Below, piece after piece: positions 7,245-32,000 of a stretch of 32,000 bases of DNA. The translations under genes and the position numbers were made by a program. Origin of the DNA: Patescibacteria group bacterium (GTDB lineage: Bacteria; Patescibacteriota; Minisyncoccia; UBA6257; HR35); the NCBI GenBank assembly GCA_023480925.1, contig JAMCWY010000003.1, positions 1 through 32,000 on the forward strand, written 5' to 3'. A model generated the notes under the pieces. The model was given only the letters and a program-made list of their open reading frames with translations. It was not told the DNA's origin and did not search any database. Position 1 is the first letter of the stretch. Each line of letters opens with the position of its first letter.

Positions 7245-7414
7245 CGCGGGTGACAAAAAATTTTACCGGCCGATCGATTCGATAAATTTATAAGCGGACG
7301 CGATCAAGACGAGTTCAATTTTAAAACGGCAACCAGAAGTTAAATTTAACGATTTGGTTTCAATAATAATTGAAAGCGTTCGTAATTATTAAGCGATATG
7401 GGGTAAAAAAAATT

Positions 7415-10851: not shown

Positions 10852-10852
10852 G

Positions 10853-11986
10853 ATGAGAATAGGTATTGATGCGAGAGTCTTGGAAAGAAAGATGACCGGT
10901 GTCGGCCGCTATGTTTTGAACTTAATTAAGAATATTTCTTCCTGCGACGAGACGAACGAATACTTTATTTTTTCTTACGCGCCTCTGAAGGATTTTGTCG
11001 CTTCGAATCCGAACATTAAAAATATTCCGACTTTAAATTTTTTGCCTCGCGGCGTCCTTCAGAAATTAATATCGCCTTTCTGGATGAATTTGATCCTGCC
11101 AACATTTCTCCGTCGCGAAAAAATAGATCTGTTTTTTTCTCCAAATCACGTCTTGCCTTTTTTGAGGGGGAAAACAAAAAACGTGGCAGTGATTCTTGAT
11201 TTGTTTAATATTATCAATAAGAAGTTTCATTCTTTTTTGTATCGTTTATACGTCAGCTTTACCTTATTTAATTCCGTCAAGAAAAGCGATGCGATTATTA
11301 CAATTTCCGAAGCGTCCAAAAAAGATATAATAAAATTTTTAAAAGTTCAAGGAGACAAGGTAAAGGTTATTTATCTCGCGGCTGATGATAAATTCAAACC
11401 AAGAAACATAAGCGATGAGGAAAAACGTAAATTAAGAGCAAGATACGACTTGTCCGAAGAATTTATTTTATATGTCGGCGTGATAGAAGAAAGGAAAAAC
11501 ATGGCCGGAATTTTAAAAGTTGCCGATGAACTTTTGAAAAGAGGCCTAAAAACGCCGATTGTCTTGATTGGCCGTGTGGGCTATGGCGGCAAGAAATACA
11601 TAGAAAACGTAAAAAATCGCGAGAATGTTTTTTACAGAGGATTTGTCGAAGAAGCCGACTTGCCCTATATTTATAACATCTCGTCTTTATTTTTTTTCCC
11701 ATCGCTTTATGAGGGATTTGGTCTTCCGCCCCTTGAGGCGATGCGATCAGGTGTGCCCGTGGTCGCGTCTAATGCCTCGTCGCTTCAGGAAGTGATAGGC
11801 GATGGGGGGATTATGCTTTCGCCCGATGATTATCCCGGTTTTACCGACGTCATAGAAAGGATTATGAAAGATGATAATCTACGTTTAGAGCTTATACAAA
11901 AAGGGCTAGCGCGAGCGAGTAAGTTTAGTTTCGAGAGAATGGCTTGCGAAACGGTCGAGACATTAAACAGAGTTAAACAACTATGA
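10853..11986 (+). CDS. GT4-family glycosyltransferase (mannosyltransferase-like)
   Basis: FPSLYEGFGLPPLEAMRSGVPVVASN is the canonical E-x7-E motif. ATG 10853 lies 2 nt after the upstream stop; the ORF track uses TTG 10841. Confidence 0.85.
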   Translation: MRIGIDARVLERKMTGVGRYVLNLIKNISSCDETNEYFIFSYAPLKDFVASNPNIKNIPTLNFLPRGVLQKLISPFWMNLILPTFLRREKIDLFFSPNHVLPFLRGKTKNVAVILDLFNIINKKFHSFLYRLYVSFTLFNSVKKSDAIITISEASKKDIIKFLKVQGDKVKVIYLAADDKFKPRNISDEEKRKLRARYDLSEEFILYVGVIEERKNMAGILKVADELLKRGLKTPIVLIGRVGYGGKKYIENVKNRENVFYRGFVEEADLPYIYNISSLFFFPSLYEGFGLPPLEAMRSGVPVVASNASSLQEVIGDGGIMLSPDDYPGFTDVIERIMKDDNLRLELIQKGLARASKFSFERMACETVETLNRVKQL

Positions 11987-12936
11987 CGAAGAAAATATTA
12001 ATTACTGGCGTGGCCGGGTTTATTGGCAGCAATCTCGCCGAACGTTTAATCAAGGAAGGTTATCGGGTCGTCGGTGTCGATAATTTATCGGCTGGCGTTT
12101 TAGAGCAAGTTCCCAAAGAGGTTGAATTTCACAAAATTGATATTCGTTCGAAGGATATTTTCCCGGTCTTCAATGGCGTTGATGTTGTTTTTCATTTTGC
12201 CGCTAAAAATTGTATCTCTGAATGTCAACTTTATCCGCTCGAAACGGCCGACGTGAACATAATCGGCACGCTTAACGTTTTTGACGCCTCGTTGAAAGCT
12301 AAAGTTGATAGAGTAATTTACGCGGAGTCGTCGGCAATATACGAAGGGACAGAGATATTCCCAACGCCGGAAACTAATTTTACGCCTCAAACTTTTTATG
12401 CCATAACAAAGGCGTCCAATCATCTATTCGCCAAAGCTTACCAGCAGTTTTTCGGTTTGAAGACAGTTGGAATGAGGTATCTTAATGTCTACGGTCCAAG
12501 GCAAGATTATCGCCGGGTCGTGGCGCCGGTCATGAGCGCTTTTATAATAAAGTTTTTAATGGGCAAAAGACCAAAAATCTTTGGCAATGGATTAAAAAGA
12601 AGAGATTTTATCCATGTTGACGATATAAATGATTTTCATATAATGTGTATTAATAATGAAAAGGTTATTAATAAGGTGTTCAATTTGGGCGGCGGTAAAA
12701 ATTATTCGATTATGGAAATATACAAAATGATCCAAGATATTTTAAAGATTAAAATTGAACCGGAATTTTTGCCTGATGTTCCAGGGGAAGCTTTTGAAAG
12801 TTTGGGTGATATAACGGAAGCTCGTAAAATTGGTTGGGAGCCTAAGATGCCTCTCCGCGATGGTCTGATTGGAATGATTGATTATATAAAAAAAGAAATA
12901 ACAAAAGGTAATATTAAAAGCGATACCGTCTTATGA
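11983..12936 (+). CDS. Extended-SDR NAD-dependent NDP-sugar epimerase/dehydratase
   Basis: ILITGVAGFIGSNL Rossmann motif and YAITKASNH catalytic YxxxK. About 317 aa, GalE/WbpP-like in length and layout. Confidence 0.85.
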   Translation: MTKKILITGVAGFIGSNLAERLIKEGYRVVGVDNLSAGVLEQVPKEVEFHKIDIRSKDIFPVFNGVDVVFHFAAKNCISECQLYPLETADVNIIGTLNVFDASLKAKVDRVIYAESSAIYEGTEIFPTPETNFTPQTFYAITKASNHLFAKAYQQFFGLKTVGMRYLNVYGPRQDYRRVVAPVMSAFIIKFLMGKRPKIFGNGLKRRDFIHVDDINDFHIMCINNEKVINKVFNLGGGKNYSIMEIYKMIQDILKIKIEPEFLPDVPGEAFESLGDITEARKIGWEPKMPLRDGLIGMIDYIKKEITKGNIKSDTVL

Positions 12937-13919
12937 TTATTACGCGAACTCCTTTTAGAATAACTTTGGGCGGCGGCGGCACGGATTTGCCGTCTTATTA
13001 CTCAAAATACGGCGGATTTATTTTTTCCGCCGGAATCGATAAGTATATGTTTGTTGACGTGAATAGACCGGTCGTCGACGATTTGATCCGTTTGAAATAT
13101 TCAAAGTCGGAGACGGTTGAAAATGTTGAAGAAATTCAGCATAGCATAGCGAAAGAAATTTTAAAATTTATCGGCATTGACAAATGTATAGAAATAAGTT
13201 CGGTCGCCGACATACCGGCCGGGACCGGTTTGGGTTCATCGAGTTGTTATGCTGTGGGACTTTTGCACGCTCTGCATGCTTTAAAAAGAGATTACGTGCC
13301 GTTAGATAAATTAGCGGATGAGGATTTTAAAATCGAAGCGGAAATTTTAGGCAGACCAATAGGGAAGCAAGATCCTTATATGGCCGCCATCGGCGGATTA
13401 ACTGTTTTGGATATAGACCAAGAAGGAGGAGTTAAAGCAAGGAAAGCTAATATTTCGTACGAGGCGGCCAACGCTCTCAATGGTAATATGCTTGTGTTTT
13501 TTACCGGTTTGACCAGGAGCGCGGACGAGATATTAGTTGAGCAAAAGAAAGCGATTAATGAAGAAAAAAAGGATGTTCTTGAAAGTATGCATTATATTAA
13601 AGAACTCGGTTACAAAATATTAGAAGCGGTTGAATCGGAAAATATTGCCGACGTGGGCAAGCTATTTGATACCCACTGGCAATATAAGAAAAAAATTTCA
13701 AACAAGATGTCAAATGAAAGATTTGATAAAATTTACAGAATCGCTAAAGAAAACGGCGCCTTGGGCGGAAAAATTTCCGGTGCGGGCGGGGGAGGATTTT
13801 TTACTTTTTACGTGGAAAATAACCATAAAAAGTTTAGAGAAGTGATGAAAGATTTAAACCTGCGAGAAATGAGATATCGTTTTGACTTTGAAGGTTCGAA
13901 GGTTTTAATTGATTTTTAA
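12933..13919 (+). CDS. hddA: GHMP-family sugar kinase, probable D-glycero-alpha-D-manno-heptose 7-phosphate kinase
   Basis: MIITRTPFRITLGGGGTDLPSYY N-terminus. PAGTGLGSSS GHMP motif II. GAGGGGF motif III. It clusters with gmhA, gmhB and a nucleotidyltransferase. Substrate is inferred from context. Confidence 0.7.
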   Translation: MIITRTPFRITLGGGGTDLPSYYSKYGGFIFSAGIDKYMFVDVNRPVVDDLIRLKYSKSETVENVEEIQHSIAKEILKFIGIDKCIEISSVADIPAGTGLGSSSCYAVGLLHALHALKRDYVPLDKLADEDFKIEAEILGRPIGKQDPYMAAIGGLTVLDIDQEGGVKARKANISYEAANALNGNMLVFFTGLTRSADEILVEQKKAINEEKKDVLESMHYIKELGYKILEAVESENIADVGKLFDTHWQYKKKISNKMSNERFDKIYRIAKENGALGGKISGAGGGGFFTFYVENNHKKFREVMKDLNLREMRYRFDFEGSKVLIDF

Positions 13920-13929
13920 ATTTGGAATA

Positions 13930-14757
13930 ATGACGTTAAAAAATAAAGTGGCTGTGGTAACCGGCGGATCGGGTGGCATAGGTAAGGTCGTGGCGGAAGT
14001 ATTAGTTAAAAACGGCGCGACCGTTATAATTATTGGTAAAAAACAAAAAAAGTTGAAAGGAGTCGTTAATTCTTTTGAAGAAAAGGGATTTAAGATTGAT
14101 TGCGAAAAATGCGATATTTCTAATGTGTCAGAAGTCAGTCGCGTCGTCATAAAAATTATCGCGCTTTTAAAAAGAATAGATATTTTGGTAAACTGCGCCG
14201 GCGTTCAATCGCCCATCGGTCCGTTTGTTGATAATACTTTTTTGGCTTGGGAAAAAAATATCAAGGTTAACTTGTTGGGGACGGTCTTAATGTCTAAAAA
14301 AGTTATTCCTTATATGATAAAAAGAAAAAGTGGTTATATTATCAATTTTGCCGGCGGCGGCGCGACCTCGTCTCGGCCTAATTTTTCAGCCTACGCCGCG
14401 GCCAAAACGGCGATCGTGCGGTTTACCGAAGTTTTGGCTGATGAGGTTAGACGATACAACATTAATGTAAACGCTGTCTCGCCGGGCGCGGTTAACACCA
14501 AAATGACCGAAGAAGTTTTAAAAGTTGGAATGAAAGCCGGTTTAAAAGAATTGACCGATGTTAAAAGACGAATCAAAGAAGGCGGAACGTCGCCGGAGCT
14601 TGTGGCTAATCTGATTGTTTTTTTATCGTCGGCTAAATCAAAAGGATTATCAGGAAGATTGATTAGCGCCGTTTGGGACAAATGGCAAGAGTGGGATGCA
14701 AAAGCTATTAGAGAAATAATGAAAAGCGATAAATACACATTAAGAAGAATTAAGTAA
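13930..14757 (+). CDS. Classical short-chain dehydrogenase/reductase
   Basis: VAVVTGGSGGIG cofactor motif, NCAG, and YAAAKTA catalytic YxxxK. The first ATG is at 13930; the ORF track uses TTG 13909. Confidence 0.85.
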   Translation: MTLKNKVAVVTGGSGGIGKVVAEVLVKNGATVIIIGKKQKKLKGVVNSFEEKGFKIDCEKCDISNVSEVSRVVIKIIALLKRIDILVNCAGVQSPIGPFVDNTFLAWEKNIKVNLLGTVLMSKKVIPYMIKRKSGYIINFAGGGATSSRPNFSAYAAAKTAIVRFTEVLADEVRRYNINVNAVSPGAVNTKMTEEVLKVGMKAGLKELTDVKRRIKEGGTSPELVANLIVFLSSAKSKGLSGRLISAVWDKWQEWDAKAIREIMKSDKYTLRRIK

Positions 14758-14758
14758 A

Positions 14759-15781
14759 ATGTCAGAAATAAATATTAAGAATATGGGCGTTGGTATTGTC
14801 GGTGCTGGCTTAATTGGTTGGAGACGAGCGGAAGTAATTAAGGCGTCGAAAAAAGGCAAACTTTTAGTGGTCACAGACGCTGATTTTGAAAAAGCCAAAA
14901 AATTAGCGGAAAAATATAATTGCCAAGCGTGTCAAAGTTGGTCGGACCTTCTTAAGAAGGAAGACGTAAAAATTGTTATTGTCGCCGTGCCAAATAAATT
15001 TGCCGCGCCAATTTCAATCGCCGCGTTAAAGAAAAACAAACATGTTTTTTGCGAAAAACCGCTTGGCCGAAACGCGAATGAAGCAAAAAAAGTTTTGACG
15101 GCCGTAAAAAAATACAAAAAAGTTTTTAAGGTCGGTTTTAATCATCGTTTTCACGCGGCCGTCGCTCAAGCAAAAAAAATTTTTGACGAAGGCGGGATAG
15201 GAAAACTTATGTTCATTCGCGCTCGATATGGTTACGGCGGCAGGTTCGGGATGGAAAAAGAATGGCGAATGGACAAAAATATTTCCGGCGGCGGCGAACT
15301 GTTGGATCAAGGTGTTCATATTATTGATCTGGTGCGATGGTTCGGCGGCGAACCAAAAAAAGTGTACGGTTTAGTCCAAACCAAATTTTGGCAAACTCAG
15401 GTTGACGATAACGCCTTCGTGATTATGTCGAATGATAATGTTACGGCGGAGTTTCATGTCAGTTCGACTAATTGGAAGAATATATTTTCCTTCGAAATTT
15501 TCGGAGACAAAGGTTATTTGGAGATAAGCGGCAAGGGTGGTAGCTACGGTGAAGAAATTCTTATTTGGGGCAGAAGAAGAAAAAAATTCGGAGTGCCAAA
15601 AATAAAAATTTTTAAATTTGGAAAAGATATTAGTTGGGAGCGAGAATGGTTAAATTTTTTTAACGGAATAGTCAAGAAAACTAAGATTAATGGTGATACC
15701 AACGACGGTTATGCCGCCAATAAAATCGTTGAAGCAATTTATAAATCAGCTATAATGAAAAAAGTCGTTGATTTAAATTAA
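14759..15781 (+). CDS. Gfo/Idh/MocA-family NAD(P)-dependent oxidoreductase
   Basis: GVGIVGAGLIG Rossmann motif and VFCEKPL (EKP) motif. About 340 aa. Confidence 0.8.
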   Translation: MSEINIKNMGVGIVGAGLIGWRRAEVIKASKKGKLLVVTDADFEKAKKLAEKYNCQACQSWSDLLKKEDVKIVIVAVPNKFAAPISIAALKKNKHVFCEKPLGRNANEAKKVLTAVKKYKKVFKVGFNHRFHAAVAQAKKIFDEGGIGKLMFIRARYGYGGRFGMEKEWRMDKNISGGGELLDQGVHIIDLVRWFGGEPKKVYGLVQTKFWQTQVDDNAFVIMSNDNVTAEFHVSSTNWKNIFSFEIFGDKGYLEISGKGGSYGEEILIWGRRRKKFGVPKIKIFKFGKDISWEREWLNFFNGIVKKTKINGDTNDGYAANKIVEAIYKSAIMKKVVDLN

Positions 15782-15801
15782 CAGTTTATAATTTTTAGAT
15801 T

Positions 15802-16509
15802 ATGAACGATTTAAAAATAAAAATATTCGGCGACGGCGCGGATAAGTCAAGTATGCTTGATTTGTATCAGAAGCCGTACATTAAAGGTTTCACCACTAAT
15901 CCGACGTTAATGAGAAAGGCCGGCATTGAAAATTATGAAGCGTTCGCCAAGGATATTCTTTCTTTAATTAAAGATCGTCCCGTTTCTTTTGAGGTTTTTT
16001 CCGATGAGTTTTCGGAAATGGAAAGGCAGGCTAAAATCATAGCGAGTTGGGCTAAAAATGTTTATGTCAAAATACCGATTACTAACACGAAAGGCTTGAG
16101 TTCTTTTGAAGTTGTAAAAAATTTATCCAATGATGGAATCAAATTGAACATCACGGCGATTTTCACTCCAAAACAAGTTAAACATATCGCCGCCGCCTTG
16201 GCCTCGGGCGTGCCATCGATTATTTCCGTTTTTGCCGGTCGAGTCGCCGACACCGGCGTTGATCCAGTGCCGTTAATGAAAGAATGTAAAGAAATATTGA
16301 AAGATTATCCGGACGCCGAACTTTTGTGGGCTAGTCCGAGAGAGCTTTTAAATATATTCCAGGCTGATCAGATTGGTTGTGATATTATTACGGTTACACC
16401 CGATGTCTTAAAGAAACTTGATAGTGTTGGCTATGATTTGGAAAAATTTTCCATTGATACGGTCAAAATGTTTTTTGACGACGGTCAGAAAGCCGGTTAT
16501 AAACTTTAA
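15802..16509 (+). CDS. tal: Small transaldolase / fructose-6-phosphate-aldolase-family enzyme
   Basis: KIFGDGAD ... GFTTNPTL N-terminal motif and the YVKIPIT Schiff-base lysine context. About 235 aa, typical of the short transaldolase subfamily. Confidence 0.75.
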   Translation: MNDLKIKIFGDGADKSSMLDLYQKPYIKGFTTNPTLMRKAGIENYEAFAKDILSLIKDRPVSFEVFSDEFSEMERQAKIIASWAKNVYVKIPITNTKGLSSFEVVKNLSNDGIKLNITAIFTPKQVKHIAAALASGVPSIISVFAGRVADTGVDPVPLMKECKEILKDYPDAELLWASPRELLNIFQADQIGCDIITVTPDVLKKLDSVGYDLEKFSIDTVKMFFDDGQKAGYKL

Positions 16510-16532
16510 TTTTAATTAATCTCTAAGATAAA

Positions 16533-17135
16533 ATGGACAATTACATCGATTCTTATTTCGAAGAAGTAAAAAAAATAGCCGATAATATTGATAAAAGCTC
16601 CATTAAAAAAGTTATTGATATTTTAAAAAATATTCGATCTAATAGCGGTCGTTTGTATATTATTGGCGTTGGCGGAAGCGCTGGCAGCGCTAGTCATGCC
16701 GTCAACGATTTTAGAAAGTTGGCTGGGATCGAAGCTTACGCGCCAACGGATAATGTTTCCGAGTTGACCGCGAGAACCAATGACGAGGGCTGGCAAACTA
16801 TTTTTTCCGAATGGCTTAAAGGAAGCAAATTAAACAATAATGACGTTATTTTAGTTTTATCCGTTGGTGGCGGCAACGAAGAAAAGAATATCAGTCCGAA
16901 TATAGTCGAAGCTCTTAAGCTGGCGAAAGATGTCGGCGCTAAAATTATCGGCATCGTCAGCCGAGACGGCGGCTACACTAAAAAAGTCGCTGACGCCTGC
17001 GTTCTTATCCCGGTTGTCAATGATAAGGCAATAACGCCTCACGCCGAATCATTTCAGGCTGTTGTTTGGCATTTAATTGTTTTCCATCCGGATTTTCAGT
17101 TGAACTCGGGTAAATGGGAATCGATCAAAAAATAA
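16533..17135 (+). CDS. gmhA: Single-SIS-domain protein, probable sedoheptulose-7-phosphate isomerase
   Basis: YIIGVGGSAGSASHAVNDF and ILVLSVGGGN SIS motifs. It is 200 aa, matching GmhA length, and sits next to gmhB. Confidence 0.7.
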   Translation: MDNYIDSYFEEVKKIADNIDKSSIKKVIDILKNIRSNSGRLYIIGVGGSAGSASHAVNDFRKLAGIEAYAPTDNVSELTARTNDEGWQTIFSEWLKGSKLNNNDVILVLSVGGGNEEKNISPNIVEALKLAKDVGAKIIGIVSRDGGYTKKVADACVLIPVVNDKAITPHAESFQAVVWHLIVFHPDFQLNSGKWESIKK

Positions 17136-17701
17136 AAATTCAGAAAAGAGCGGTTTTTCTTGATCAAGATGGAACCGTGATTAAACATGTAGATTTACTT
17201 ATTGACGTTAAAGACATTAAAATACTTCCCGGCGTCGTGACCGCCATTAGACGACTTCGTCAATTAGGTTTTTTGGTTATAGTGATTACGAATCAACCAG
17301 TAGTGGCAAGAGGATTAATTTCTGAAAATGGCGTAAAAGTATTAGAAAAAAGAATTTCTTGGTTGTTATCTCAAAAGGGAGTTCTTGTTGACGATTTTTT
17401 CTTTTGTCCTCATCATCCCGAGGCAACTTTGAAAAAATATCGGGTGAAATGTCAATGTCGAAAACCGGCGCCAGGAATGATTTTAAAAGCTGCCAAGAGA
17501 TACAACATAGATTTGAAAAACAGCTTTATGGTGGGCGATGCCTTAATAGATAGCGTTACTGGCCATCGAGCCGGGGTTAAAACTATTCTTGTCAAAACCG
17601 GTCCGGGTCATTCCAAATTGGACAAAATATATAAAGAAGAAAAGCCAGATAAAGTCGTTAAAAAAATTTACGAGGCGGTAAAGCTTATATGCGAAAAATA
17701 A
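17114..17701 (+). CDS. gmhB: D,D-heptose 1,7-bisphosphate phosphatase (HAD superfamily)
   Basis: AVFLDQDGT (DxDGT), VITNQ, CPHHPE...CQCRKPAPGM (zinc loop plus conserved Lys) and VGDALIDSVTGHRAG. It tracks E. coli GmhB closely as I remember it. Confidence 0.85.
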   Translation: MGIDQKIKIQKRAVFLDQDGTVIKHVDLLIDVKDIKILPGVVTAIRRLRQLGFLVIVITNQPVVARGLISENGVKVLEKRISWLLSQKGVLVDDFFFCPHHPEATLKKYRVKCQCRKPAPGMILKAAKRYNIDLKNSFMVGDALIDSVTGHRAGVKTILVKTGPGHSKLDKIYKEEKPDKVVKKIYEAVKLICEK

Positions 17702-18420
17702 ATCAAGCTGTTATTCTTTGCGCTGGTCTGGGGACGCGCCTGCGTCCGCTAACTGACAATATGCCGAAACCGATGGTGCCAATTCTGGGTAAGCCGATGC
17801 TTTTATGGAATATAGAGCAGTTTAAGAAATACGGCGTTATTAATTTTAAAATAAATTTATATCATCTTCCCGACGTGATTAAAAATTATTTCGGCGATGG
17901 CTCTAAATTTGGAGTAAAGATTGAATATAGTTTTGAAAAAGAAATTTTAGGCACGGCCGGCGCCCTGGGCGAATTTGACAAAAAGCTAGATGATTTTTTC
18001 TTTTTGATTTACGGCGATGTTGTTAGTTTTATTGATTACAATAAGATGGCGGTTAAATTTTTTGGGTTGGAAAAACCTATTGGCATGCAGCGAGTTGGGC
18101 TTACGTCAAATTATGGCGACGCGAATGTGGCCGAACTCGACCACAATAATAAATTTGTGACTGTATATATAAAGCCTCATTCGGAAATTTATTCTAATGC
18201 GTATCGAATGAGGGGTTCATTTATTTTCAGTAAAAAAGTCTTGAATTATATCGAAAAAGGAAAATGTTCAGAAATAAGTAAAAATTTGTTGCCCAAACTT
18301 ATTGAAAATGATGAAAATTTTTACGGCTATGAGTGTGATGAATTTTCAAAGGGCGTGGATACGATCGATAAATTAAATGAGGTCGAAGATTACATCAGAA
18401 ATAATCATATGATTATATGA
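17689..18420 (+). CDS. hddC: Sugar-1-phosphate nucleotidyltransferase, probable heptose-1-phosphate guanylyltransferase
   Basis: AVILCAGLGTRLRPLTDNMPKPMVPILGKPML signature and about 243 aa. Nucleotide and sugar specificity are inferred from context only. Confidence 0.65.
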   Translation: MRKINQAVILCAGLGTRLRPLTDNMPKPMVPILGKPMLLWNIEQFKKYGVINFKINLYHLPDVIKNYFGDGSKFGVKIEYSFEKEILGTAGALGEFDKKLDDFFFLIYGDVVSFIDYNKMAVKFFGLEKPIGMQRVGLTSNYGDANVAELDHNNKFVTVYIKPHSEIYSNAYRMRGSFIFSKKVLNYIEKGKCSEISKNLLPKLIENDENFYGYECDEFSKGVDTIDKLNEVEDYIRNNHMII

Positions 18421-19256
18421 ATGATATTGGTCTTTTTAGGGTGACAGTGCTTATAGCTACTTGGAATCGAAAAGACTTGATTGGAAAAGCGATAGAGAGT
18501 GTTTTGCAACAGTCTTTTCCATCGTGGGAATTAATTGTAATAGACGATGGTTCCACGGATGGCACAGAAGAAGTGGTTGCTAAATATATTTTTCGTGATT
18601 CAAGAGTGAAATATATTAAGATTGATCATATTGGAAGGATTGCTGTGGTCTCTAATCGTGGTTTACGATTGGCGGTCGGCGATTATATCGCCATATTGGA
18701 TGATGATGATGTTTGGATAGATGAAGATAAATTAAAAAAACAGGTTGATTTTTTGGATAAAAATCAACTTTATGTTGGTTGCGGCGGCGGCATGATTGGA
18801 GTTGATCGGGCTGGCAACGGAATGTTTAGATCTTTAAAACCTGAGAGTGACGCTGAAATAAAAAAAAGAGCTTTGTGCGCAAATCCAATGATTAATTCCG
18901 CGACGATGTTTAGAAGAAGTATCGCTGAAAAAATTGGATTTTATGATGAAACCTTATCGCAGTTCGCCGATTGGGATTTCTGGTTGAAAATTGGAACGAT
19001 GGGGAAGTTGTATAATTTTCAGGAATACTTCGTGTTATATCTTGTCTGGGATAAGAGCAGTTCTTTTACTAAACAAAAAGAAAACGCGCGATCGGCGTTA
19101 ACAATAGTGAAAAAATATAGAAAAATTTATCCAAATTTTAAAGTAGCCTTCGTCTTGGCTGTTTTATATAGAAGTTATACGTTCATACCGGCAAGCGTTA
19201 GAAGATTTTTGAATCCAATATTTTCCATTGCCAAAAAAAAAATTTTTTCTAAATAG
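18417..19256 (+). CDS. GT2-family glycosyltransferase
   Basis: VTVLIATWNRKDLIGKAIESVLQQSF, LIVIDDGSTDGT and ILDDDD (DxD) motifs. Confidence 0.85.
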   Translation: MNDIGLFRVTVLIATWNRKDLIGKAIESVLQQSFPSWELIVIDDGSTDGTEEVVAKYIFRDSRVKYIKIDHIGRIAVVSNRGLRLAVGDYIAILDDDDVWIDEDKLKKQVDFLDKNQLYVGCGGGMIGVDRAGNGMFRSLKPESDAEIKKRALCANPMINSATMFRRSIAEKIGFYDETLSQFADWDFWLKIGTMGKLYNFQEYFVLYLVWDKSSSFTKQKENARSALTIVKKYRKIYPNFKVAFVLAVLYRSYTFIPASVRRFLNPIFSIAKKKIFSK

Positions 19257-21718: not shown

Positions 21719-22132
21719 TTAAGATAGACCCAATTTTTTCGCCACGTTCGGATCAAGATCGGTCGTAAAGTATGATCGGAGTTCTTCCGGTTTAACCCAT
21801 TTGATTTTTTCTATTTCATCTGTTTCTTGCGGTTTCTGGATCTGATTACTTTTTTCTAAATTACAAATAAAATAACAAATAATTTTTGTAAATTGGGGGT
21901 GGATTCTTAAAGAAATCTGTTTGACCGCTTTGATCTTATAGCCAGTTTCAGCCAAAATTTCTCTTTCAACTGTTTTTGCTCTTGTTTCACCCGCTTCTTG
22001 CTTTCCGCCCGGGAAAACCCAAGTAAGCGGTGCTCCGTCTTTTCCTTTTTCGACAACCTTTCTTTTGACAATTAAAACTTCGCCATTTTTATTTCTAACT
22101 ATGCCAAGATTGACGAGGTTGGTTTCTGCCAT
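21719..22132 (-). CDS. Nudix hydrolase
   Basis: Complete Nudix box GGKQEAGETRAKTVEREILAETGY (G-x5-E-x7-REUxEExGU). Confidence 0.85.
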   Translation of the reverse strand: MAETNLVNLGIVRNKNGEVLIVKRKVVEKGKDGAPLTWVFPGGKQEAGETRAKTVEREILAETGYKIKAVKQISLRIHPQFTKIICYFICNLEKSNQIQKPQETDEIEKIKWVKPEELRSYFTTDLDPNVAKKLGLS

Positions 22133-23680: not shown

Positions 23681-23689
23681 TGATATAAT
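23681..23689 (+). promoter_or_regulatory. Candidate extended -10 promoter (TGaTATAAT) of the atp operon
   Basis: tgatataat ends 8 nt before the atpB ATG at 23698. Confidence 0.45.
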
Positions 23690-23697
23690 AAAAAGTT

Positions 23698-24402
23698 ATG
23701 GCAGTGGAGTTTAAACCGGATATCATTTTAACAATTTTTAACTGGCCGATTTCAAATTCGTTGTTGGCGAGTTTTTTGTCGCTTGGTTTGATTTTCCTGA
23801 CATTGTTTATTTTTAAAAAAAGATTAAAAGAAGTGCCAGGTCGATTTCAGGCGGCGATTGAAATTATTTACGAAGGTTTTTTTGATTTTTACAACGATAT
23901 TCTCGAATCAAGCAAACAAACAAAAGTTTTCTTTTCTTTTTTGTTCGCTTTTTTCCTTTACGTCATTGTAAGCAACTGGATTGGTCTGTTGCCCGGCATT
24001 GGCAGTCTGGTTGTTCATTGGGGCGGTCAGACCGTGCCGCTTTTTCGTTCGACTTATTCGGATTTGAATATGACCCTTGCCTTAGCTTTGATTTCCGTTA
24101 TCGGCGTCAATATAATCGCTATTTTTTATCTGCGCCGCTTTTATTTCAAAAAGTGGTTGACAGCATTGGCGCCGTTTGAAATTTTTTCGGAATTTGCTAA
24201 AATAATATCTTTCTCGTTCAGATTATTCGGGAATATTTTTGCTGGCGATGTTCTTTTAATCGTAATTTTTTCGTTGAGCGGCTATATTTTACCGGTGCCG
24301 TTTATAGGTTTGGAAATTTTTGTCGGTTTTATCCAGGCTTTAATTTTTACCGCCTTAACCGCAATTTTCTTAAAAGTCGCATTAATTCAAACATCGCATT
24401 AA
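23698..24402 (+). CDS. atpB: F0F1 ATP synthase subunit a
   Basis: A polytopic protein with FSFRLFGNIFAGD, which carries the conserved Arg of subunit a. It is the first gene of the atp cluster. Confidence 0.9.
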   Translation: MAVEFKPDIILTIFNWPISNSLLASFLSLGLIFLTLFIFKKRLKEVPGRFQAAIEIIYEGFFDFYNDILESSKQTKVFFSFLFAFFLYVIVSNWIGLLPGIGSLVVHWGGQTVPLFRSTYSDLNMTLALALISVIGVNIIAIFYLRRFYFKKWLTALAPFEIFSEFAKIISFSFRLFGNIFAGDVLLIVIFSLSGYILPVPFIGLEIFVGFIQALIFTALTAIFLKVALIQTSH

Positions 24403-24405
24403 TCA

Positions 24406-24648
24406 ATGCCGCAATCTTTGGATTTAAGTTTTCTTAATAATCTTTTTGCCGGTTTGACGATCGCGATCGGCGTCGCTTTGCCCGCTTGGGCGATTGGCAA
24501 GATTGGCAGCTCAGCCGTCGAAGGCATCAGCCGTAATCCCGAAGCGACGCCAAAAATCCAAACGGCGATGATCTTAGCTATCGCTTTCGCCGAGGCTGTC
24601 GCTATTTATGTTTTGGTTATCACCCTTTTGATTAAATTCGTCAAATAA
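24406..24648 (+). CDS. atpE: F0F1 ATP synthase subunit c
   Basis: An 80-aa helical hairpin with loop RNPE and the ion-binding carboxylate in AFAEAVAIY. There is no Ser/Thr after the Glu, which suggests H+ coupling. Confidence 0.9.
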   Translation: MPQSLDLSFLNNLFAGLTIAIGVALPAWAIGKIGSSAVEGISRNPEATPKIQTAMILAIAFAEAVAIYVLVITLLIKFVK

Positions 24649-24706: not shown

Positions 24707-25210
24707 ATGGATTTGCTAACGAAAATCGGGATTGAACCGAAATTACTACTGGCTCAAGTTGTCAATTTTGGCATCGTTGTTTTTATCATTTATTATTTTT
24801 TGCATAAACCTTTGTCTAATTTGATTAAGACGAGGCGGGAAAAAATCGAATCGGGTCTGAAAAAAGAAAAAGAAGCGGAAGAGCTGATGGCGAAAGTTCA
24901 ATCTTTGCGTCAGGATATTTTGACCGCGGCGGCAAAGGAAAAAGAAGAAATAATTTTGGCGACAAGGGCAAAGTTGGTTGAACTTGAAGAGGCCGAGCGC
25001 GAAAAATTGGTCCGATTCGAGTTGAACGAGAGAAAAAAAATCGAGGCGGCTTTGGCTCAGACGGAAAAAGAATTAGCTAAAGAAATCGAGGCTAAATTTC
25101 CGGCTTTATTTTTAAATTTAAGCTCGAAAATTTTTCCGGCGAAAGATTTGAACGAAAAATTTATTAAAGCGATGCTTGAACAAACTGAGCCGAACGGTCA
25201 AAACGAATAA
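24707..25210 (+). CDS. atpF: F0F1 ATP synthase subunit b
   Basis: One N-terminal TM followed by a long charged helix (E/K/A-rich). Operon position supports the call. Confidence 0.75.
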   Translation: MDLLTKIGIEPKLLLAQVVNFGIVVFIIYYFLHKPLSNLIKTRREKIESGLKKEKEAEELMAKVQSLRQDILTAAAKEKEEIILATRAKLVELEEAEREKLVRFELNERKKIEAALAQTEKELAKEIEAKFPALFLNLSSKIFPAKDLNEKFIKAMLEQTEPNGQNE

Positions 25211-25590
25211 TGCCGAATATTTGGACGAAGATTTTGGTTGACAAATTTGAACGAGATAAAGATTTGAAGGTCGTTGATGGTTTGGTTGAGCTTTTAAAAC
25301 GGCGTGGCCGGTTGAAACAATTGAAAGAAATTTTGGCTGACTTAAAATTCATTCAGGACCAAACCGACCGCGTTGGTTCAGCTAAATTAGTCTTAGCTCA
25401 ACCAATTGAAGAAAAGACGTTGGCTTTGATAAAAACGAAGTTGGCGCGGCGGTTGGGTTGGTGCGATCTCAATCCAAGAATTAGAGTTGATAAGAATCTT
25501 GTCGCCGGCGGTTTCTTATTGACTCGGGCCAAGTTTGTCGATTTTAGTTTTCGCGGTTTAATTTTGAGAGGTTTAGTTAAAGAGCAGTGA
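25210..25590 (+). CDS. atpH: F0F1 ATP synthase subunit delta (short, 126 aa)
   Basis: The C-terminal VDKNLVAGGFLLTRAKFVDFSFRGLILRGL resembles the OSCP/delta consensus (liGG..i..g....D.S). It lies between atpF and atpA. It looks N-terminally shorter than the usual ~180 aa. Confidence 0.65.
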   Translation: MPNIWTKILVDKFERDKDLKVVDGLVELLKRRGRLKQLKEILADLKFIQDQTDRVGSAKLVLAQPIEEKTLALIKTKLARRLGWCDLNPRIRVDKNLVAGGFLLTRAKFVDFSFRGLILRGLVKEQ

Positions 25591-25597: not shown

Positions 25598-27142
25598 ATG
25601 GAAGATTTAAAATTTTTGATTCAAAAACTTGAAAAAGAATTATTGAGAATCGAGGCCGGCGCTGAGATAGTATCGGTCGGGACGGTTTTGCGGACAGGCG
25701 ACGGCGTTGTTTGGATTGATGGTTTGGCCCAGACGAAACTAAACGAGATTCTTCTGGTTCGGCCAAGCCAGACGAGTGGAACGAAAGAAATCAGCGTGCC
25801 CGTTTTGGCTTTGAATTTGGAAGAAGAGTTGATCGGCGCGGTTGCCTTGGCTGATTCCGATCTGATTAAAGAAGGCGATATGGTCATAAGGACGGAAACG
25901 GTTATCCAGGCGCCGGTTGGCCCGTCTTTAATCGGCCGAGTCGTCAATCCTTTGGGTCAGCCGCTTGATGGCTTGGGCGAAATTAAAACCGAAACATTCT
26001 ATCCCCTAGAACGAGAAGCGCCGGGCGTGATTGAGCGGGAGCCAGTGCGAAGACCGCTTCAAACCGGAATCAAGGCGATTGATGGATTGATTCCGATTGG
26101 CCGGGGTCAGCGAGAGTTAATTTTGGGCGATCGTCAAATTGGCAAGACCGCGATCGCTTTAGATGTAATTTTGAATCAAAAAGACGAAAAGAAAGATCGG
26201 CCGATTTGCGTTTATGTCGGCGTTGGCCAAAAACTTTCGAAGATTAAGCGAATGTATGAAATTTTAAAAAAGGCCGGCGCGCTTGACTATACTATCATGG
26301 TCGTGGCGAGCGCTTCCGATCCAGCCGCCTTGATTTATCTTTCCGTTTACAGCGGTTGTTCGATTGGAGAATATTTTCGGGATAACGGTCAGGACGCGGT
26401 TGTGATTTACGACGATTTGACTAAGCACGCTTGGGCTTGGCGGGAATTGAGTTTGCTTTTAAAACGACCGGTTGGCCGCGAGGCTTATCCGGGCGATATT
26501 TTTTACACGCACGCGCGCTTATTGGAACGAGCGGCGAAATTGAAAGAAGGCGGATCGTTGACCGCCTTGCCGATTTGCGAAACTCAACTCGGCGATATTT
26601 CTTCTTATATTCCAACAAATTTAATTTCAATCACCGATGGTCAAATTTATCTTGAGACCGATTTATTCAATAAAGGCTTTCGGCCGGCGATCAGTATCGG
26701 TTTGAGCGTTTCGCGCGTCGGTTCACAGGCTCAGACCAAGTTAATGAAAAAAGTCGCTGGCCGATTGAAGCTTGATCTGGCTCAATTTCGCGAATTGGAA
26801 GCGTTCGCTCAGGTCACGAGTGATTTGGCCGAGGCGAGCAGGAAAAAATTGGAACGAGGTCGAGTTTTGACCGAAATTTTAAAACAAGAGAATCTTCAAC
26901 CGCTTAGTTTTGAAAAAATTGCGGTTTTGTTTTTCGCCGCGAACGAGGGTTATCTTGACGGGTTCAGCTCGGCCGAAATTTTTTATTTCGAGAATAAACT
27001 TTTGGCGGATTTAAATTTGGACCAGGCGGATTTGGCCACGGCCTTAAAAACCAAAGCGGATATTGACGATACTTTGGTTGAAAAATTAAATCAGTATTTA
27101 AAAAATTTTGTCCAATCTTTTCGCCAGAACCGGAGTAATTAA
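25598..27142 (+). CDS. atpA: F0F1 ATP synthase subunit alpha
   Basis: GDRQIGKTAIALD Walker A, VIYDDLTKHA, and PGREAYPGDIFYTHARLLERA-type motifs. Confidence 0.95.
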   Translation: MEDLKFLIQKLEKELLRIEAGAEIVSVGTVLRTGDGVVWIDGLAQTKLNEILLVRPSQTSGTKEISVPVLALNLEEELIGAVALADSDLIKEGDMVIRTETVIQAPVGPSLIGRVVNPLGQPLDGLGEIKTETFYPLEREAPGVIEREPVRRPLQTGIKAIDGLIPIGRGQRELILGDRQIGKTAIALDVILNQKDEKKDRPICVYVGVGQKLSKIKRMYEILKKAGALDYTIMVVASASDPAALIYLSVYSGCSIGEYFRDNGQDAVVIYDDLTKHAWAWRELSLLLKRPVGREAYPGDIFYTHARLLERAAKLKEGGSLTALPICETQLGDISSYIPTNLISITDGQIYLETDLFNKGFRPAISIGLSVSRVGSQAQTKLMKKVAGRLKLDLAQFRELEAFAQVTSDLAEASRKKLERGRVLTEILKQENLQPLSFEKIAVLFFAANEGYLDGFSSAEIFYFENKLLADLNLDQADLATALKTKADIDDTLVEKLNQYLKNFVQSFRQNRSN

Positions 27143-27153
27143 ATTTAACTAAA

Positions 27154-27483
27154 ATGAATTTTAAACAGTATCAAGAAAAATCTCGTCGGACCGCGATTTA
27201 TCCCCGTCGCGGCAAAGATTTTATTTATCCGGCTCTCGGTTTGGGCGGCGAGACGGGCGAGGTTTTGGATAAGATTAAAAAAATCATCCGAGACAAAAAT
27301 TACAAAGTTGATCAGTTGGTTCGATCGGAATTAGAAAAAGAACTGGGCGATGTTTTGTGGTATCTGGCTCAATTGGCGACGGAATTAAAATTATCTCTTG
27401 ACCAAATCGCGAAAACAAATTTAAAAAAATTAAATTCACGTTTAAAGCGAGATCAAATCAAGGGCAGCGGCGATAATCGTTAA
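27154..27483 (+). CDS. Small MazG-like all-alpha nucleoside triphosphate pyrophosphohydrolase
   Basis: LGLGGETGEVLDKIKK and ELGDVLWYLAQLA correspond to the E-x2-E ... E-x2-D metal-binding helices of the MazG/YpjD-type family. It is 109 aa. It starts 11 nt after atpA and ends 4 nt before atpG. Confidence 0.75.
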   Translation: MNFKQYQEKSRRTAIYPRRGKDFIYPALGLGGETGEVLDKIKKIIRDKNYKVDQLVRSELEKELGDVLWYLAQLATELKLSLDQIAKTNLKKLNSRLKRDQIKGSGDNR

Positions 27484-27487
27484 GGCG

Positions 27488-28444
27488 ATGAAACAAACAT
27501 CTTCGCGGAGTTTAAAAAGAAAGATTAAATCTTTGGCGAGTTTTCAAAAGATGACCCGGTCGATTAGTTTGACGGCGGCGGTCAAACTTCGTCGGGTTCA
27601 AATGAAAATGTTAAAAGCGAGATTTCTTGGTTATGAGCTTTTGCTTTTTCTCAAAGAACTTTTAAAAAGAAACAACAACTTGCCTAACCATTATCTATTT
27701 AATCAAGCCGCCGCCGGTCGAGCTGATTTGGCTAAAAAGATTTTAGTGATTGTGATTGCCTCGGATCGAGGTTTGGCCGGATCGTTTGATTTGAATATTT
27801 TCCGCCAAGCTGAATCGATAATCGCTGATTTAGACAAGAGTCAGTTTGATCTCGGTTTAATCGGCCGAAAGGCGAAAAATCATTTTAAAAAAAGAGGTTT
27901 TGAACCAATTTTTGCTTTTGAACATTTTGAGAACGTTATAACTAAAAGCGACATAACCGAATTGATCGAGTTTCTTAAAAGGGCTTTGATCAAAAATATT
28001 TATAGCCGGGTCGCGGTTATTTATAATAATTTTTATTCAGTCTTAAAACAAAAGGTTGAGGTTGTTGATCTTTATCCTTTTAGTTTTGAAACATTTGATC
28101 GTCAGCTTGAAAATATTATTCCTCGCCAAGGAATGTTTTCCGATCAGACCAAGGTTAAGCCGGCCGTTGGACGGTTTGAATATTTGATCGAACCCAGTCC
28201 GGAAAAAGTTTTGCCGACAGTTTTGGAATTAGCCTTTAGTTATTTAATCTATCTGATTATTTTGGAGGCGAACTCGGCCGAACAAGCCGCTCGTTTGATC
28301 ACGATGCAGCGGGCTTTTGAGAACGCGAGTGAAATGATGTTTGAGACGAAGTTAGTTTATAACAAATTGAGACAAGGTCAAATTACGCGGGAGCTTTTGG
28401 AGATCATTTCCGGCTCGAGTCAGTTAATTAACGATTTAGTTTGA
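27488..28444 (+). CDS. atpG: F0F1 ATP synthase subunit gamma
   Basis: N-terminal LKRKIKSLASFQKMTRSISLTAAVKLRRVQ and C-terminal ANSAEQAARLITMQRAFENA...LRQGQITRELLEI match the gamma termini. Confidence 0.85.
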   Translation: MKQTSSRSLKRKIKSLASFQKMTRSISLTAAVKLRRVQMKMLKARFLGYELLLFLKELLKRNNNLPNHYLFNQAAAGRADLAKKILVIVIASDRGLAGSFDLNIFRQAESIIADLDKSQFDLGLIGRKAKNHFKKRGFEPIFAFEHFENVITKSDITELIEFLKRALIKNIYSRVAVIYNNFYSVLKQKVEVVDLYPFSFETFDRQLENIIPRQGMFSDQTKVKPAVGRFEYLIEPSPEKVLPTVLELAFSYLIYLIILEANSAEQAARLITMQRAFENASEMMFETKLVYNKLRQGQITRELLEIISGSSQLINDLV

Positions 28445-28464: not shown

Positions 28465-29907
<1,443 letters not shown>

Positions 29908-29965: not shown

Positions 29966-29990
29966 GCGAATTTTAAATTCGCGGATTTTT
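29966..29990 (+). terminator. Candidate terminator after atpD
   Basis: gcgaatt-tta-aattcgc is a perfect 7-bp palindrome at 29966-29982, followed by ggattttt. A second 9-bp stem, ctaaaacta at 29904-29912 with tagttttag at 29935-29943, lies just upstream. Confidence 0.45.
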
Positions 29991-29998: not shown

Positions 29999-31738
29999 TT
30001 AAATCAATCGGTAACTAATTTCTTTGATGACTTTGATATTTTTTAGTTTGATCAAAATTTTTTCCGTTTTTTCTTTATTATCGAAATTGATCTTAATTTT
30101 TATTTGGGCGAAATGACCGTTTGGGTTTGAGTGGATTTCTTTGATGTTGGTTTTGGTTTGGGCGATGATGTCGGAAATGTTTTTAATCAAGTTAATTTTG
30201 TCTTCGGCCAGGATTTTTATCTCAGCCAGCCGTTCGCGTTTGAATGGATCGTCTTGGCGAAGCTTGTTTCTGATTTTCTTTTTAGCTCGGTCGGTTTTGA
30301 TAAAACGAATCCAGGATTCCGATGGCCGCCGCGTTTTTTGAGTCAAAATTTCAACAATATCGCCGGATTGGAGAATTTGATCGAGATTGACGATTTTGTC
30401 GTTGACCCGGGCGCCGACGCAGTGGTTGCCGATTTCGGTGTGAACGGCGTAAGCGAAATCGATTGGCGTTGACCCAGCCGGCAGATCGAAAACTTCGCCC
30501 TTGGGCGTGATCGTAAAAATTCTGTCTTTAAAAAAATCAATTTTAAGCGATTGGAGAAAATCATCTTGGCTGTCAAATTTATTTTGCCAATTTTTCAATT
30601 GTTCAATCCAATTTAACTCTTTCCGGTCGGCAAAAATCGTTTTGGCTTTTAAATAATTTTTGCTTTGTTTCGCTTGGCTATAAAACCAGTAAGCGGCAAT
30701 ACCGTTTTCATTTTCTTCGTGCATCTCGAGCGTTCGAATTTGAAATTCGGTTGGTTTGTTTTCTTCGCAGATGACGGTCGTGTGAATGCTGCGATAGCCG
30801 TTTGGTTTGGGCAGGGCGATGTAGTCTTTAATCCGGCCGGGCAGAGGCGGCCAAAGTTTGTGGATAAAACCAAGAACGGCATAACACTCTTCGACTGTCT
30901 GAACGATAATTCGAACCGCGACTAAATCGTAAACTTGGCTAAGGTCCATATCGTAACGGAGAATTTTTTTGTAAAGACTGGCGTAACGTTTGGCTCGAGT
31001 ATCGATTCGGATTGGTTTGATTTTATTCTTTTCCAATTCCGTCCCGATTATCTTTTTGACATTTTCAAGGTATCTTTCTCGTTCTTGAAATTTTTCTTTG
31101 ACATTTTCTTTCAACCATTTGGACTCGGTTGGGTGAAGATAGGGGAAGGCGAGATCGTCGAGTTCGCCGGCCAGGTTACTCATACCCAGACGGTAGGCGA
31201 GAGGCGAATAAATTTCGTTTGTTTCAAGAGCGATTCGTTTTTGTTTGTTTGGCGCCAGAGCATTGAGGGTTTTGAGATTGTGGAGCCGGTCGGCCAGCTT
31301 AATGAAGACGACGCGAATGTCTTCGCTCATGGCCAAAATCATTTTTTTTAAAGTTTCGATCTGAGCTTGGTTGCCGCGGTATTTGATTCGGCTGATCTTA
31401 GTCACGCCATCGACAAGAAAAGCGATCTCATCGCCGAATTCTTTTTTAATCCGTTCCAAAGAAATGTCGGTGTCTTCGACGACGTCGTGTAAGAGCGCGG
31501 CGGCGGCAGTGGCCAAGTCTAACTGCCACTGGCTAATCTTTAAAGCGGTCTGGAAGGCGTGGTTGAAATAAGGTTCGCCCGATTTTCTTTTTTGGCCACG
31601 GTGGGCTTCTTGGCTGAAGGTGAAAGCTTTTTTAATTAATTCCAATTCCGTTTCATTTAATTGGCAATATTTCTTGATCGCGCCAATCAATTCTTGAAAC
31701 TGGTTTGAATTTATTTTTCCATCTATTTTGGCCGTCAT
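29999..31738 (-). CDS. rel: Bifunctional RelA/SpoT homologue, (p)ppGpp synthetase/hydrolase, compact 579-aa form
   Basis: HD hydrolase motifs (HRGQKRKSGEPYFNH, LLHDVVEDT). Synthetase motifs (RAKRYASLYKK, DLVAVRII, GYRSIHTTV, EFQIRTLEMH). TGS domain (TPKGEVFDLPAGSTPIDFAYAVHTEIG). C-terminal ACT/RRM-like segment. Confidence 0.9.
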   Translation of the reverse strand: MTAKIDGKINSNQFQELIGAIKKYCQLNETELELIKKAFTFSQEAHRGQKRKSGEPYFNHAFQTALKISQWQLDLATAAAALLHDVVEDTDISLERIKKEFGDEIAFLVDGVTKISRIKYRGNQAQIETLKKMILAMSEDIRVVFIKLADRLHNLKTLNALAPNKQKRIALETNEIYSPLAYRLGMSNLAGELDDLAFPYLHPTESKWLKENVKEKFQERERYLENVKKIIGTELEKNKIKPIRIDTRAKRYASLYKKILRYDMDLSQVYDLVAVRIIVQTVEECYAVLGFIHKLWPPLPGRIKDYIALPKPNGYRSIHTTVICEENKPTEFQIRTLEMHEENENGIAAYWFYSQAKQSKNYLKAKTIFADRKELNWIEQLKNWQNKFDSQDDFLQSLKIDFFKDRIFTITPKGEVFDLPAGSTPIDFAYAVHTEIGNHCVGARVNDKIVNLDQILQSGDIVEILTQKTRRPSESWIRFIKTDRAKKKIRNKLRQDDPFKRERLAEIKILAEDKINLIKNISDIIAQTKTNIKEIHSNPNGHFAQIKIKINFDNKEKTEKILIKLKNIKVIKEISYRLI

Positions 31739-31759: not shown

Positions 31760-31765
31760 TATAAT
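31760..31765 (+). promoter_or_regulatory. Candidate -10 box (TATAAT) just upstream of atpC
   Basis: tataat ends 4 nt before ATG 31770 and 7 nt before the second ATG at 31773. Confidence 0.35.
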
Positions 31766-31769: not shown

Positions 31770-32000
31770 ATGATGGTAAAGTTTCATTTTAAATTTGTAA
31801 CCGAAGCGGGAGTTGAGCGTGATCAAGAAATTGACGGTTTAAATTTGATGACTGAGGCCGGCGAAATCACGGTTTTGGCTCATCATCGGCCCTTGATCGC
31901 GGTTGCCCAAAAAGGAAAAATAAAGATTTTAAATCAGAACCAAGCCGAGTCTTTCGAATTGAAGGCGGATTCGATTCTTGAGGTCAGGCCGGACGAAGTT
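31770..32000 (+). CDS. atpC: F0F1 ATP synthase subunit epsilon (3'-truncated by the window edge; not in the ORF track)
   Basis: Hand translation gives MMVKFHFKFVTEAGVERDQEIDGLNLMTEAGEITVLAHHRPLIAVAQKGKIKILNQNQAESFELKADSILEVRPDEV. This aligns with E. coli epsilon at GE.G.....H.PL and ILEV.P. It is in frame to the last base of the window. Confidence 0.85.
   Translation, partial: MMVKFHFKFVTEAGVERDQEIDGLNLMTEAGEITVLAHHRPLIAVAQKGKIKILNQNQAESFELKADSILEVRPDEV

Follow-up and report, generated by a model that had tools for sequence, protein, structure and literature searches.

MazG proteins and the analysed locus

The all-alpha nucleoside triphosphate pyrophosphohydrolases (NTP-PPases) include the dimeric dUTPases, DCTPP1 and DR2231. 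E. coli MazG, which has been linked to guanosine tetraphosphate (ppGpp), is a protein of 263 amino acids (aa) with two tandem domains and it is encoded in the relA-mazE-mazF-mazG operon. Here, we describe a gene for a MazG-like protein of 109 aa with one domain that lies between the ATP synthase genes atpA and atpG in DNA from a Patescibacteria group bacterium (assembly GCA_023480925.1, contig JAMCWY010000003.1, positions 1 to 32,000 of the forward strand; this whole stretch of 32,000 nucleotides (nt) is referred to as the window). The protein belongs to the small MazG family of Patescibacteria and picocyanobacteria, represented for instance by Syn_WH7803_01219 from Synechococcus WH7803. Elsewhere, the genes of this family belong to thymidylate clusters or are scattered over housekeeping contexts, and the window copy differs from them only by its position. 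We consider it probable, at roughly 70%, that the gene encodes a housekeeping pyrophosphohydrolase for ribo- and deoxyribonucleoside triphosphates ((d)NTPs) that is carried as a passenger in the atp operon.

Enzymatic data are available for more distant MazG proteins. The MazG of cyanophage S-PM2 was shown to hydrolyse dNTPs and NTPs with the highest Vmax for dGTP and dCTP, and it also cleaves dUTP (PMC6850273). Neither S-PM2 MazG nor the large MazG of Synechococcus binds or hydrolyses ppGpp or pppGpp (PMC6850273). Rihtman et al. (2019) assayed the phage enzyme and the large MazG of the host, but not the small one of the host (PMC6850273). S-PM2 MazG resembles the window protein in that it has a single MazG domain and a similar size, but it represents a different subfamily (39% identity over 64% of the query, E = 6e-6), and for this reason its preference for dGTP and dCTP is not simply transferable. 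MazG-like enzymes have furthermore been proposed to substitute for dUTPase (PMC5122711).

The gene and its immediate surroundings are:

27154-27483, plus strand: mazG, open reading frame (ORF) with ATG start encoding the putative small single-domain MazG-like (d)NTP pyrophosphohydrolase of 109 aa (ORF and Pfam)
27143-27153, plus strand: spacer between atpA and mazG, ATTTAACTAAA, 11 nt, too short for a promoter or a terminator
27484-27487, plus strand: spacer between mazG and atpG, GGCG, 4 nt
25598-27142, plus strand: atpA, alpha subunit
27488-28444, plus strand: atpG, gamma subunit (PF00231, 212.5 bits)

The start of atpG defines the shorter spacer. The long start at 27488 is taken as correct because M1 and the N-terminus are invariant in 12 homologues and because the alignment with the gamma-subunit model of Pfam begins at residue 6.

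The window protein is a member of the small MazG family

The original prediction, made from the sequence alone, had placed an all-alpha MazG-type protein with E-x2-E and E-x2-D helices between atpA and atpG, and position, spacers and assignment were all confirmed. The MazG profile PF03819, named there as a check, matches residues 30-97 with 44 bits against a cut-off of 22 (E = 2.8e-11), and the PHROG family phrog_229, 'MazG-like pyrophosphatase', matches residues 1-109 with 131 bits. The Pfam scan reported only PF03819 at E <= 0.01 and gave no match to the dimeric dUTPase/dCTPase family PF08761. The metal-binding motif E33-x2-E36 ... E63-x2-D66 is invariant in 84/84 family members and the same applies to K40, K43, R46, Y70, E77, N89, K92 and R96 as well as to G106, D107 and R109, which are part of the C-terminal GxGDNR tail of the window protein. 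Altogether, the window protein keeps all 17 residues that are invariant in the family.

A four-helix all-alpha fold is confidently predicted by an AlphaFold2 model based on an alignment of 28 sequences, with helices at residues 3-11, 24-47, 54-77 and 82-98 and a mean predicted local distance difference test score (pLDDT) of 92.5. The top matches obtained with this model by Foldseek in the PDB, at least 40, are all NTP-PPases (probability 1.00, template modelling score 0.6-0.7) and are led by DCTPP1/RS21-C6 from mouse and human, B. subtilis YpjD, BcMazG (5ie9), iMazG, DR2231 and HisE. A comparison of the family profile with the PDB returned 5ie9 (1.7e-6), 2gta (6.7e-6) and iMazG (3.6e-4), while the C-terminal domain of E. 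coli MazG was weakly matched (1e-3). DCTPP1/RS21-C6, YpjD, 5ie9 and iMazG (2q5z, 2q73) have the fold and the ExxE...ExxD core in common with the window protein, but the identity amounts to 19-27% and they do not possess the GxGDNR tail, i.e., the kinship is at the level of the superfamily only.

Much closer relatives were found in a word-indexed protein search, which returned 1,157 clusters. The best 120 of these, which were compared, cover 100% of the query with identities of 60-71% and are almost all exactly 109 aa long; those with a named source are from Patescibacteria (Woesebacteria, Parcubacteria, Moranbacteria and others). The ORF is more than a chance ORF, as there are more than 1,150 homologous clusters with a length that is nearly always 109 aa. 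A scan with the family profile over one genome per GTDB species confirmed at least 546 loci. The best 80, which were analysed, include many Patescibacteria and, with identities of 54-61%, Prochlorococcus, Synechococcus and Cyanobium, and the copies of these cyanobacteria apparently correspond to the 'small' host MazG that Rihtman et al. refer to. Window protein and family align collinearly over the full length with about 55-71% identity and share the length of 109 aa, ExxE/ExxD, the motif KELGDVLWY and GxGDNR. The mean identity of the window protein to 83 family members is 59.8% (family median 62.1%), and by sequence it does not stand out as a divergent member. It is a new member of a known and already annotated family, for which the databases use the names 'nucleoside triphosphate pyrophosphohydrolase family protein' (PGAP) and 'NTP pyrophosphatase (non-canonical NTP hydrolase)' (JGI). 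Small MazG is most likely an ordinary housekeeping orthologue present in most Patescibacteria.

The family also extends to phages. There are 749 phage records that match, and the best ones, from Streptomyces, Mycobacterium, Gordonia and Roseobacter phages, are MazG-like proteins of phrog_229 with 45-53% identity over the full length (residues 1-109). The number of phage records, the identity of up to 53% and the strong phrog_229 match could point to a gene that was recently acquired from a phage or another mobile element, i.e., a moron similar to an auxiliary metabolic gene that landed in the atp operon. This origin is very unlikely, as the chromosomal orthologues of Patescibacteria are closer to the window protein (60-71%) than any phage copy (at most 53%), the GC content of mazG (0.394; window 0.402) and that of its third codon positions (0.391) match those of the neighbouring genes, and the gene is spaced by 11 and 4 nt only. 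Around mazG only AT-rich chance repeats were detected, and neither an integrase nor other phage genes were found. The phage copies serve phage replication and, as in Gordonia phage Anaysia, the phage small MazG sometimes adjoins ThyX.

The atpA-mazG-atpG order is restricted to one species

The 80 family loci were read with up to 6 kb on each side and searched by tblastn using the AtpB, AtpE, AtpF, AtpH, AtpA, AtpG, AtpD and Rel proteins of the window. In these species-representative loci, atp genes flanking mazG were found in 0/80; one locus (L030) has atpD at a distance of 2.5 kb from mazG on the other strand. The order atpA-mazG-atpG recurs only in two loci, L001 and L002, which are of the same species as the window because they are identical to it at 97.6% of nucleotides over 12.8 kb. 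Compared with its conspecific counterpart, mazG shows two synonymous and three non-synonymous differences, which are few sites for a ratio of the two substitution rates.

The junction was also surveyed from the side of the ATP synthase, using an atpG (gamma) profile on metagenome contigs. This resulted in 80 loci, to which L088-L090 were added. For the 70 loci of this set with a same-strand atpA upstream the gaps were estimated, and MazG was found at none of the 70 atpA-atpG junctions nor anywhere else in these loci. The estimated gap has a median of -3 nt. At five of the 70 junctions the two genes are about 230-580 nt apart, judged by ORF coordinates, and the plus strand of these spacers contains no ORF of more than 60 aa. 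The longest of these spacers, about 410-580 nt, belong to distant relatives (L124 3382-3958, L133 3405-3979, L127 3574-3985; the plus strand was examined).

The gamma subunits nearest to that of the window share 49%, 48%, 41% and 38% identity with it, and seen from the ATP synthase the lineage is an isolated one. The locus with 49% (L171) contains an upstream ORF with the end LIEAFRKKIEA, followed by the stop codon, 10 nt before atpG; this end resembles the C-terminus of the window atpA (FVQSFRQNRSN) and does not carry the invariant GxGDxR, and the ORF is not MazG. In L172, only 20 nt are visible upstream of atpG. In L088 (gamma 41%), atpA is followed by a 47-nt spacer and atpG, and in L089 (gamma 38%) atpA overlaps atpG, with atpDC on the opposite strand and divergent from atpBEFHAG. 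The gene order of atp clusters is fluid in this group and atpA-mazG-atpG is a gene-order curiosity of a single lineage. A literature search on MazG in atp operons or in Patescibacteria returned nothing relevant.

The position between the genes of the alpha and the gamma subunit, with operon-like spacing, could also mean that the protein was neofunctionalised to an accessory or regulatory factor of F1Fo, such as a stator- or inhibitor-like subunit or a local modulator of ATP or pyrophosphate (PPi). The ATP synthase of the lineage is indeed unusual: the delta (OSCP) subunit has only 121-126 aa in the window, in L088 (4038-4418) and in L089 (5142-5507), of the 172 positions of the Pfam profile only 66-163 are matched and its N-terminal domain appears to be missing; epsilon has 83-84 aa in the conspecific loci and consists of the DE_N domain without the C-terminal helical domain. 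Short delta and short epsilon together look like a lineage-wide reduced F1Fo. However, mazG is absent from this place in relatives whose delta and epsilon are equally short, the arrangement is limited to one species, all catalytic and invariant residues are kept and the divergence of the protein is not accelerated. A role as F1Fo factor is thus extremely unlikely. The suggestion of the original prediction that the gene is functionally coupled to the expression of the ATP synthase did not hold up in the surveys either (0/80 family loci and 0/70 junctions with the arrangement). We assume neither functional coupling nor neofunctionalisation, because the orthologues are never found in atp operons, the invariant residues are kept and the arrangement occurs in one lineage.

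Small MazG genes are associated with thymidylate metabolism

The neighbouring genes of the surveyed loci were clustered and representatives were annotated with Pfam. Recurrent neighbours of the family are GatB, thymidylate kinase (Tmk), MiaA, dihydrofolate reductase (DHFR), a kinase of the AAA_17/18 type, ThyX, ThyA, dCMP deaminase and thymidine kinase. In 21/80 family loci Tmk, ThyA, ThyX, DHFR, dCMP deaminase or thymidine kinase is encoded within 3 kb, compared to 0/83 control loci, which were centred on atpG and had a similar total length (Fisher p = 7e-8, based on tblastn counts). Thymidylate metabolism is the sole neighbourhood that recurs at a statistically relevant level in the family. 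The starts of mazG and of the genes for Tmk and the P-loop kinase are overlapping or adjacent in family loci. The closest homologue from another species (P0003, 71% identity) is encoded in the order thyX - P-loop kinase - mazG - tmk - gatB, in which the genes overlap or abut; in L010 the order is dCMP deaminase - kinase - ThyX - Tmk - (uncharacterised) - MazG - GatB and in L012 it is ThyA - DHFR - kinase - MazG - Tmk - GatB. The association of the family with thymidylate genes is frequent, not universal.

In its general form, the conserved cluster comprises dCMP deaminase - AAA_17/18 kinase - ThyA or ThyX - DHFR - MazG - Tmk - GatB, and it is present in L010 (2085-6330), L012 (4893-8611), L086 (4044-8366) and about 18 other loci, with MiaA convergent to it. 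Two of its members are uncharacterised, i.e., the P-loop kinase and a protein of 273 aa without Pfam match (L010 5159-5980). A second recurrent context is composed of FeFe hydrogenase - a conserved 171-aa protein without Pfam match - MazG - thymidine kinase and/or an ATP-cone/Mrr-like protein, and it was seen in L032 (1-2900), L039, L056, L060, L065 and L081.

Probable transcription of mazG with the atp genes

The atp cluster has the order atpB-E-F-H-A-(mazG)-G-D, followed by rel on the minus strand and then by atpC. Apart from the genes given above it contains:

23698-24402, plus strand: atpB, Fo a subunit, first gene of the operon
24406-24648, plus strand: atpE, c subunit
24707-25210, plus strand: atpF, b subunit (PF00430)
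25210-25590, plus strand: atpH, delta/OSCP subunit, short at 126 aa (PF00213)
28474-29907, plus strand: atpD, beta subunit
29966-29990, plus strand: terminator-like hairpin, GCGAATTTTAAATTCGC with a T-run behind it, located where atpD and rel converge (pattern match only)
29999-31738, minus strand: rel, long RelA/SpoT homologue of 579 aa with HD_4, RelA_SpoT, TGS and ACT domains (Pfam)
31770-32000, plus strand: atpC, epsilon subunit, N-terminal part, continuing past the end of the window

The native junctions between the atp genes span -1 to 58 nt and the spacers of mazG (11 and 4 nt) are comparable. A pattern scan found no terminator-like site before 29966, i.e., until past atpD, and the hairpin at 29966-29990 is the probable end of the atpB...atpD transcript. 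Co-transcription of mazG with the atp genes is likely because of this native-like tight packing and of the pattern scan. The original prediction had stated that mazG must be transcribed together with the atp genes; likely is the appropriate strength, as a weak promoter-like match is present at 27078-27106 (9 of 12 positions) within the 3' end of atpA and may act as an internal promoter. Regarding RNA, no exceptional structure was found in or around mazG (fold z = -1.13) and no known RNA family either; the 16S rRNA is the one Rfam match of the window.

Most atp genes are not preceded by a Shine-Dalgarno-like sequence. A perfect TATAAT is found at 23684-23689, 8 nt ahead of the ATG of atpB, and another one at 31760-31765, 4 nt ahead of the ATG of atpC. 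These features suggest leaderless or near-leaderless first genes, or they may have arisen by chance in AT-rich DNA.

A probable housekeeping enzyme, presumably relocated into the atp operon

The function proposed for the protein is that of the family. It would convert (d)NTPs to (d)NMPs and PPi with Mg2+ bound by E33, E36, E63 and D66. If dCTP and/or dUTP were the substrates, dCMP and dUMP would be formed; dCMP would be deaminated to dUMP, and dUMP would feed ThyA or ThyX with Tmk acting next. The same reaction would keep dUTP and aberrant dNTPs out of the DNA. This role in pyrimidine dNTP metabolism is derived from the thymidylate clusters, which occur in about a quarter of the sampled species. 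It agrees with the superfamily, which comprises dimeric dUTPases, DCTPP1 and DR2231, with the proposed replacement of dUTPase by MazG-like enzymes and with the dNTP cleavage by S-PM2 MazG, and the structural similarity to DCTPP1 likewise suggests a specificity for dUTP or dCTP. For the window protein itself a preference for pyrimidine dNTPs, as suggested by gene context, is put forward tentatively, at slightly less than even chance. In one species-level lineage mazG would have been relocated into the atpA-atpG junction, where the constitutive atpB...atpD operon would carry it along as a passenger, in transcription as well as in translation. Tight spacing, native composition, the absence of a terminator-like site before 29966 and the unexceptional RNA structure are all consistent with such an integrated passenger. 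The position would then reflect the fluidity of gene order in a small genome, and not a coupling to ATP synthase or to (p)ppGpp; fluidity is assumed because the cluster is also broken by rel and because relatives have split off atpDC.

Several observations weigh against this interpretation or parts of it. In 59/80 family loci there is no thymidylate gene within 3 kb, and the positions of the family in the other genomes include places beside rpsI-rplM, recA and FeFe hydrogenase, so that the association is a partial one. The nearest assayed protein, S-PM2 MazG, is distant and gene context is the only guide to the suggested substrate preference. Co-transcription is deduced from the spacing, and the weak promoter-like match within the 3' end of atpA may be an internal promoter. 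Finally, the arrangement is kept in at least two strains, which fits a mild selective benefit as well as neutrality. An adaptive insertion would tie the dosage of MazG to that of the ATP synthase, with trimming of the pools or PPi release tracking the energy state, or it would bring MazG into interaction with F1, and together with the antisense rel the locus would constitute a lineage-specific 'energy and nucleotide homeostasis' island; we see only a slim chance for this.

The 59 loci without thymidylate neighbour would also fit a generic house-cleaning enzyme, which clears (d)NTPs that are damaged or non-canonical, be they oxidised, deaminated or modified, without being specifically involved in providing dUMP or dCMP for thymidylate synthesis, and which would still be a passenger in the atp operon. 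House-cleaning is the classical role of the all-alpha NTP-PPase superfamily (Moroz, 2005, as cited in PMC5122711), dCTP, in modified or canonical form, is the substrate of DCTPP1 and iMazG, which are the nearest matches by structure, and a nearby NUDIX hydrolase (21719-22132) shows that other sanitising enzymes are kept. As the thymidylate neighbourhood is the only recurrent one, including starts that overlap or adjoin those of Tmk and the P-loop kinase, a role in the pathway is indicated and we regard a purely generic house-cleaning function as unlikely. The two roles are not mutually exclusive, and dUTP hydrolysis serves both. The NUDIX hydrolase has 137 aa and is encoded on the minus strand, 1.6 kb ahead of atpB. 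It is also conserved in the conspecific loci, and with it the surroundings of the atp cluster contain a second hydrolase of nucleotide pyrophosphates.

As found, the arrangement is of minor importance; it illustrates how fluid gene order is in a reduced genome of the candidate phyla radiation, and it cautions that a single operon arrangement is a poor basis for inferring function. The more useful lead is the conserved 109-aa small MazG family, which is significantly tied to thymidylate genes in Patescibacteria. Small MazG is a reasonable candidate for a dCTP/dUTP pyrophosphatase that would supply dCMP and dUMP and limit uracil in DNA in these organisms.

The rel gene and the comparison with E. 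coli MazG

The original prediction had paired mazG with the Rel homologue in the same atp cluster and had proposed a nucleotide-pool or stringent-response function. The gene is present at 29999-31738, but it is encoded on the opposite strand, antisense to the atp genes. It lies 2.5 kb downstream of mazG, beyond atpG and atpD, and is convergent with atpD. Due to its opposite strand rel is not co-transcribed with mazG and it is outside the mazG transcription unit.

According to the stringent-response reading, MazG and Rel would form a module as in the E. coli relA-mazEF-mazG operon, in which MazG would lower (p)ppGpp or NTP levels along with ATP synthase expression. The long RelA/SpoT homologue with HD, synthetase, TGS and ACT domains within the same cluster, the very probable co-transcription of mazG with the atp genes and the fact that E. 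coli MazG has been linked to ppGpp speak in favour of such a module. It fails, however, on strand and distance, on the type of MazG, on its distribution and on the biochemistry of the relatives. E. coli MazG (3cra) contains the same Pfam domain, and the window protein aligns weakly to its C-terminal domain (residues 164-229), but the scores with the models of the E. coli type are far below the cut-offs (TIGR00444: 17.9 bits, cut-off 148.3; PRK09562: 22.9 bits, cut-off 208). Together with the one domain in 109 aa, this rules out an E. coli-type identity. The same-strand rel/mazEF operon of E. coli MazG is not matched at the window locus, and no MazE or MazF domains were found among the scanned ORFs of the window, the small ORFs of which were not scanned exhaustively. 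In the family, only 2/80 loci (L050 and L061) have a Rel homologue at a distance of up to 6 kb, and a linkage of Rel and MazG was rejected on this count; the arrangement is absent from all relatives surveyed. Assayed MazG homologues neither bind nor hydrolyse (p)ppGpp, and Rel has a strong match of its own to a hydrolase domain (HD_4, 164.8 bits). A module of MazG and Rel is therefore highly improbable.

The insertion of the opposite-strand rel between atpD and atpC constitutes a second break in the atp cluster; in the relatives L088 and L089, rel is absent from this place. As rel and atpC are divergent with start codons 31 nt apart, the epsilon gene must have its own promoter.

Other features of the window

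A complete 16S rRNA gene is located at 53-1646 on the plus strand (Rfam, 1372.9 bits) and it is directly followed by genes for a response regulator, a release factor and ftsEX. No 23S rRNA, 5S rRNA or tRNA gene was found anywhere in the 32-kb window, and the rRNA genes are unlinked because there is no 23S or 5S in the 32 kb around the 16S rRNA gene. A surface-polysaccharide cluster of about 14 kb is encoded at 4993-19256, with all its genes on the plus strand. It contains genes for a flippase, an FkbM methyltransferase, several glycosyltransferases of the families GT1, GT2 and GT4, an epimerase, a GHMP kinase and an SDR protein, and additionally for a GFO/IDH/MocA oxidoreductase, transaldolase-like, SIS and HAD proteins and a nucleotidyltransferase (heptose-type sugar-nucleotide pathway).

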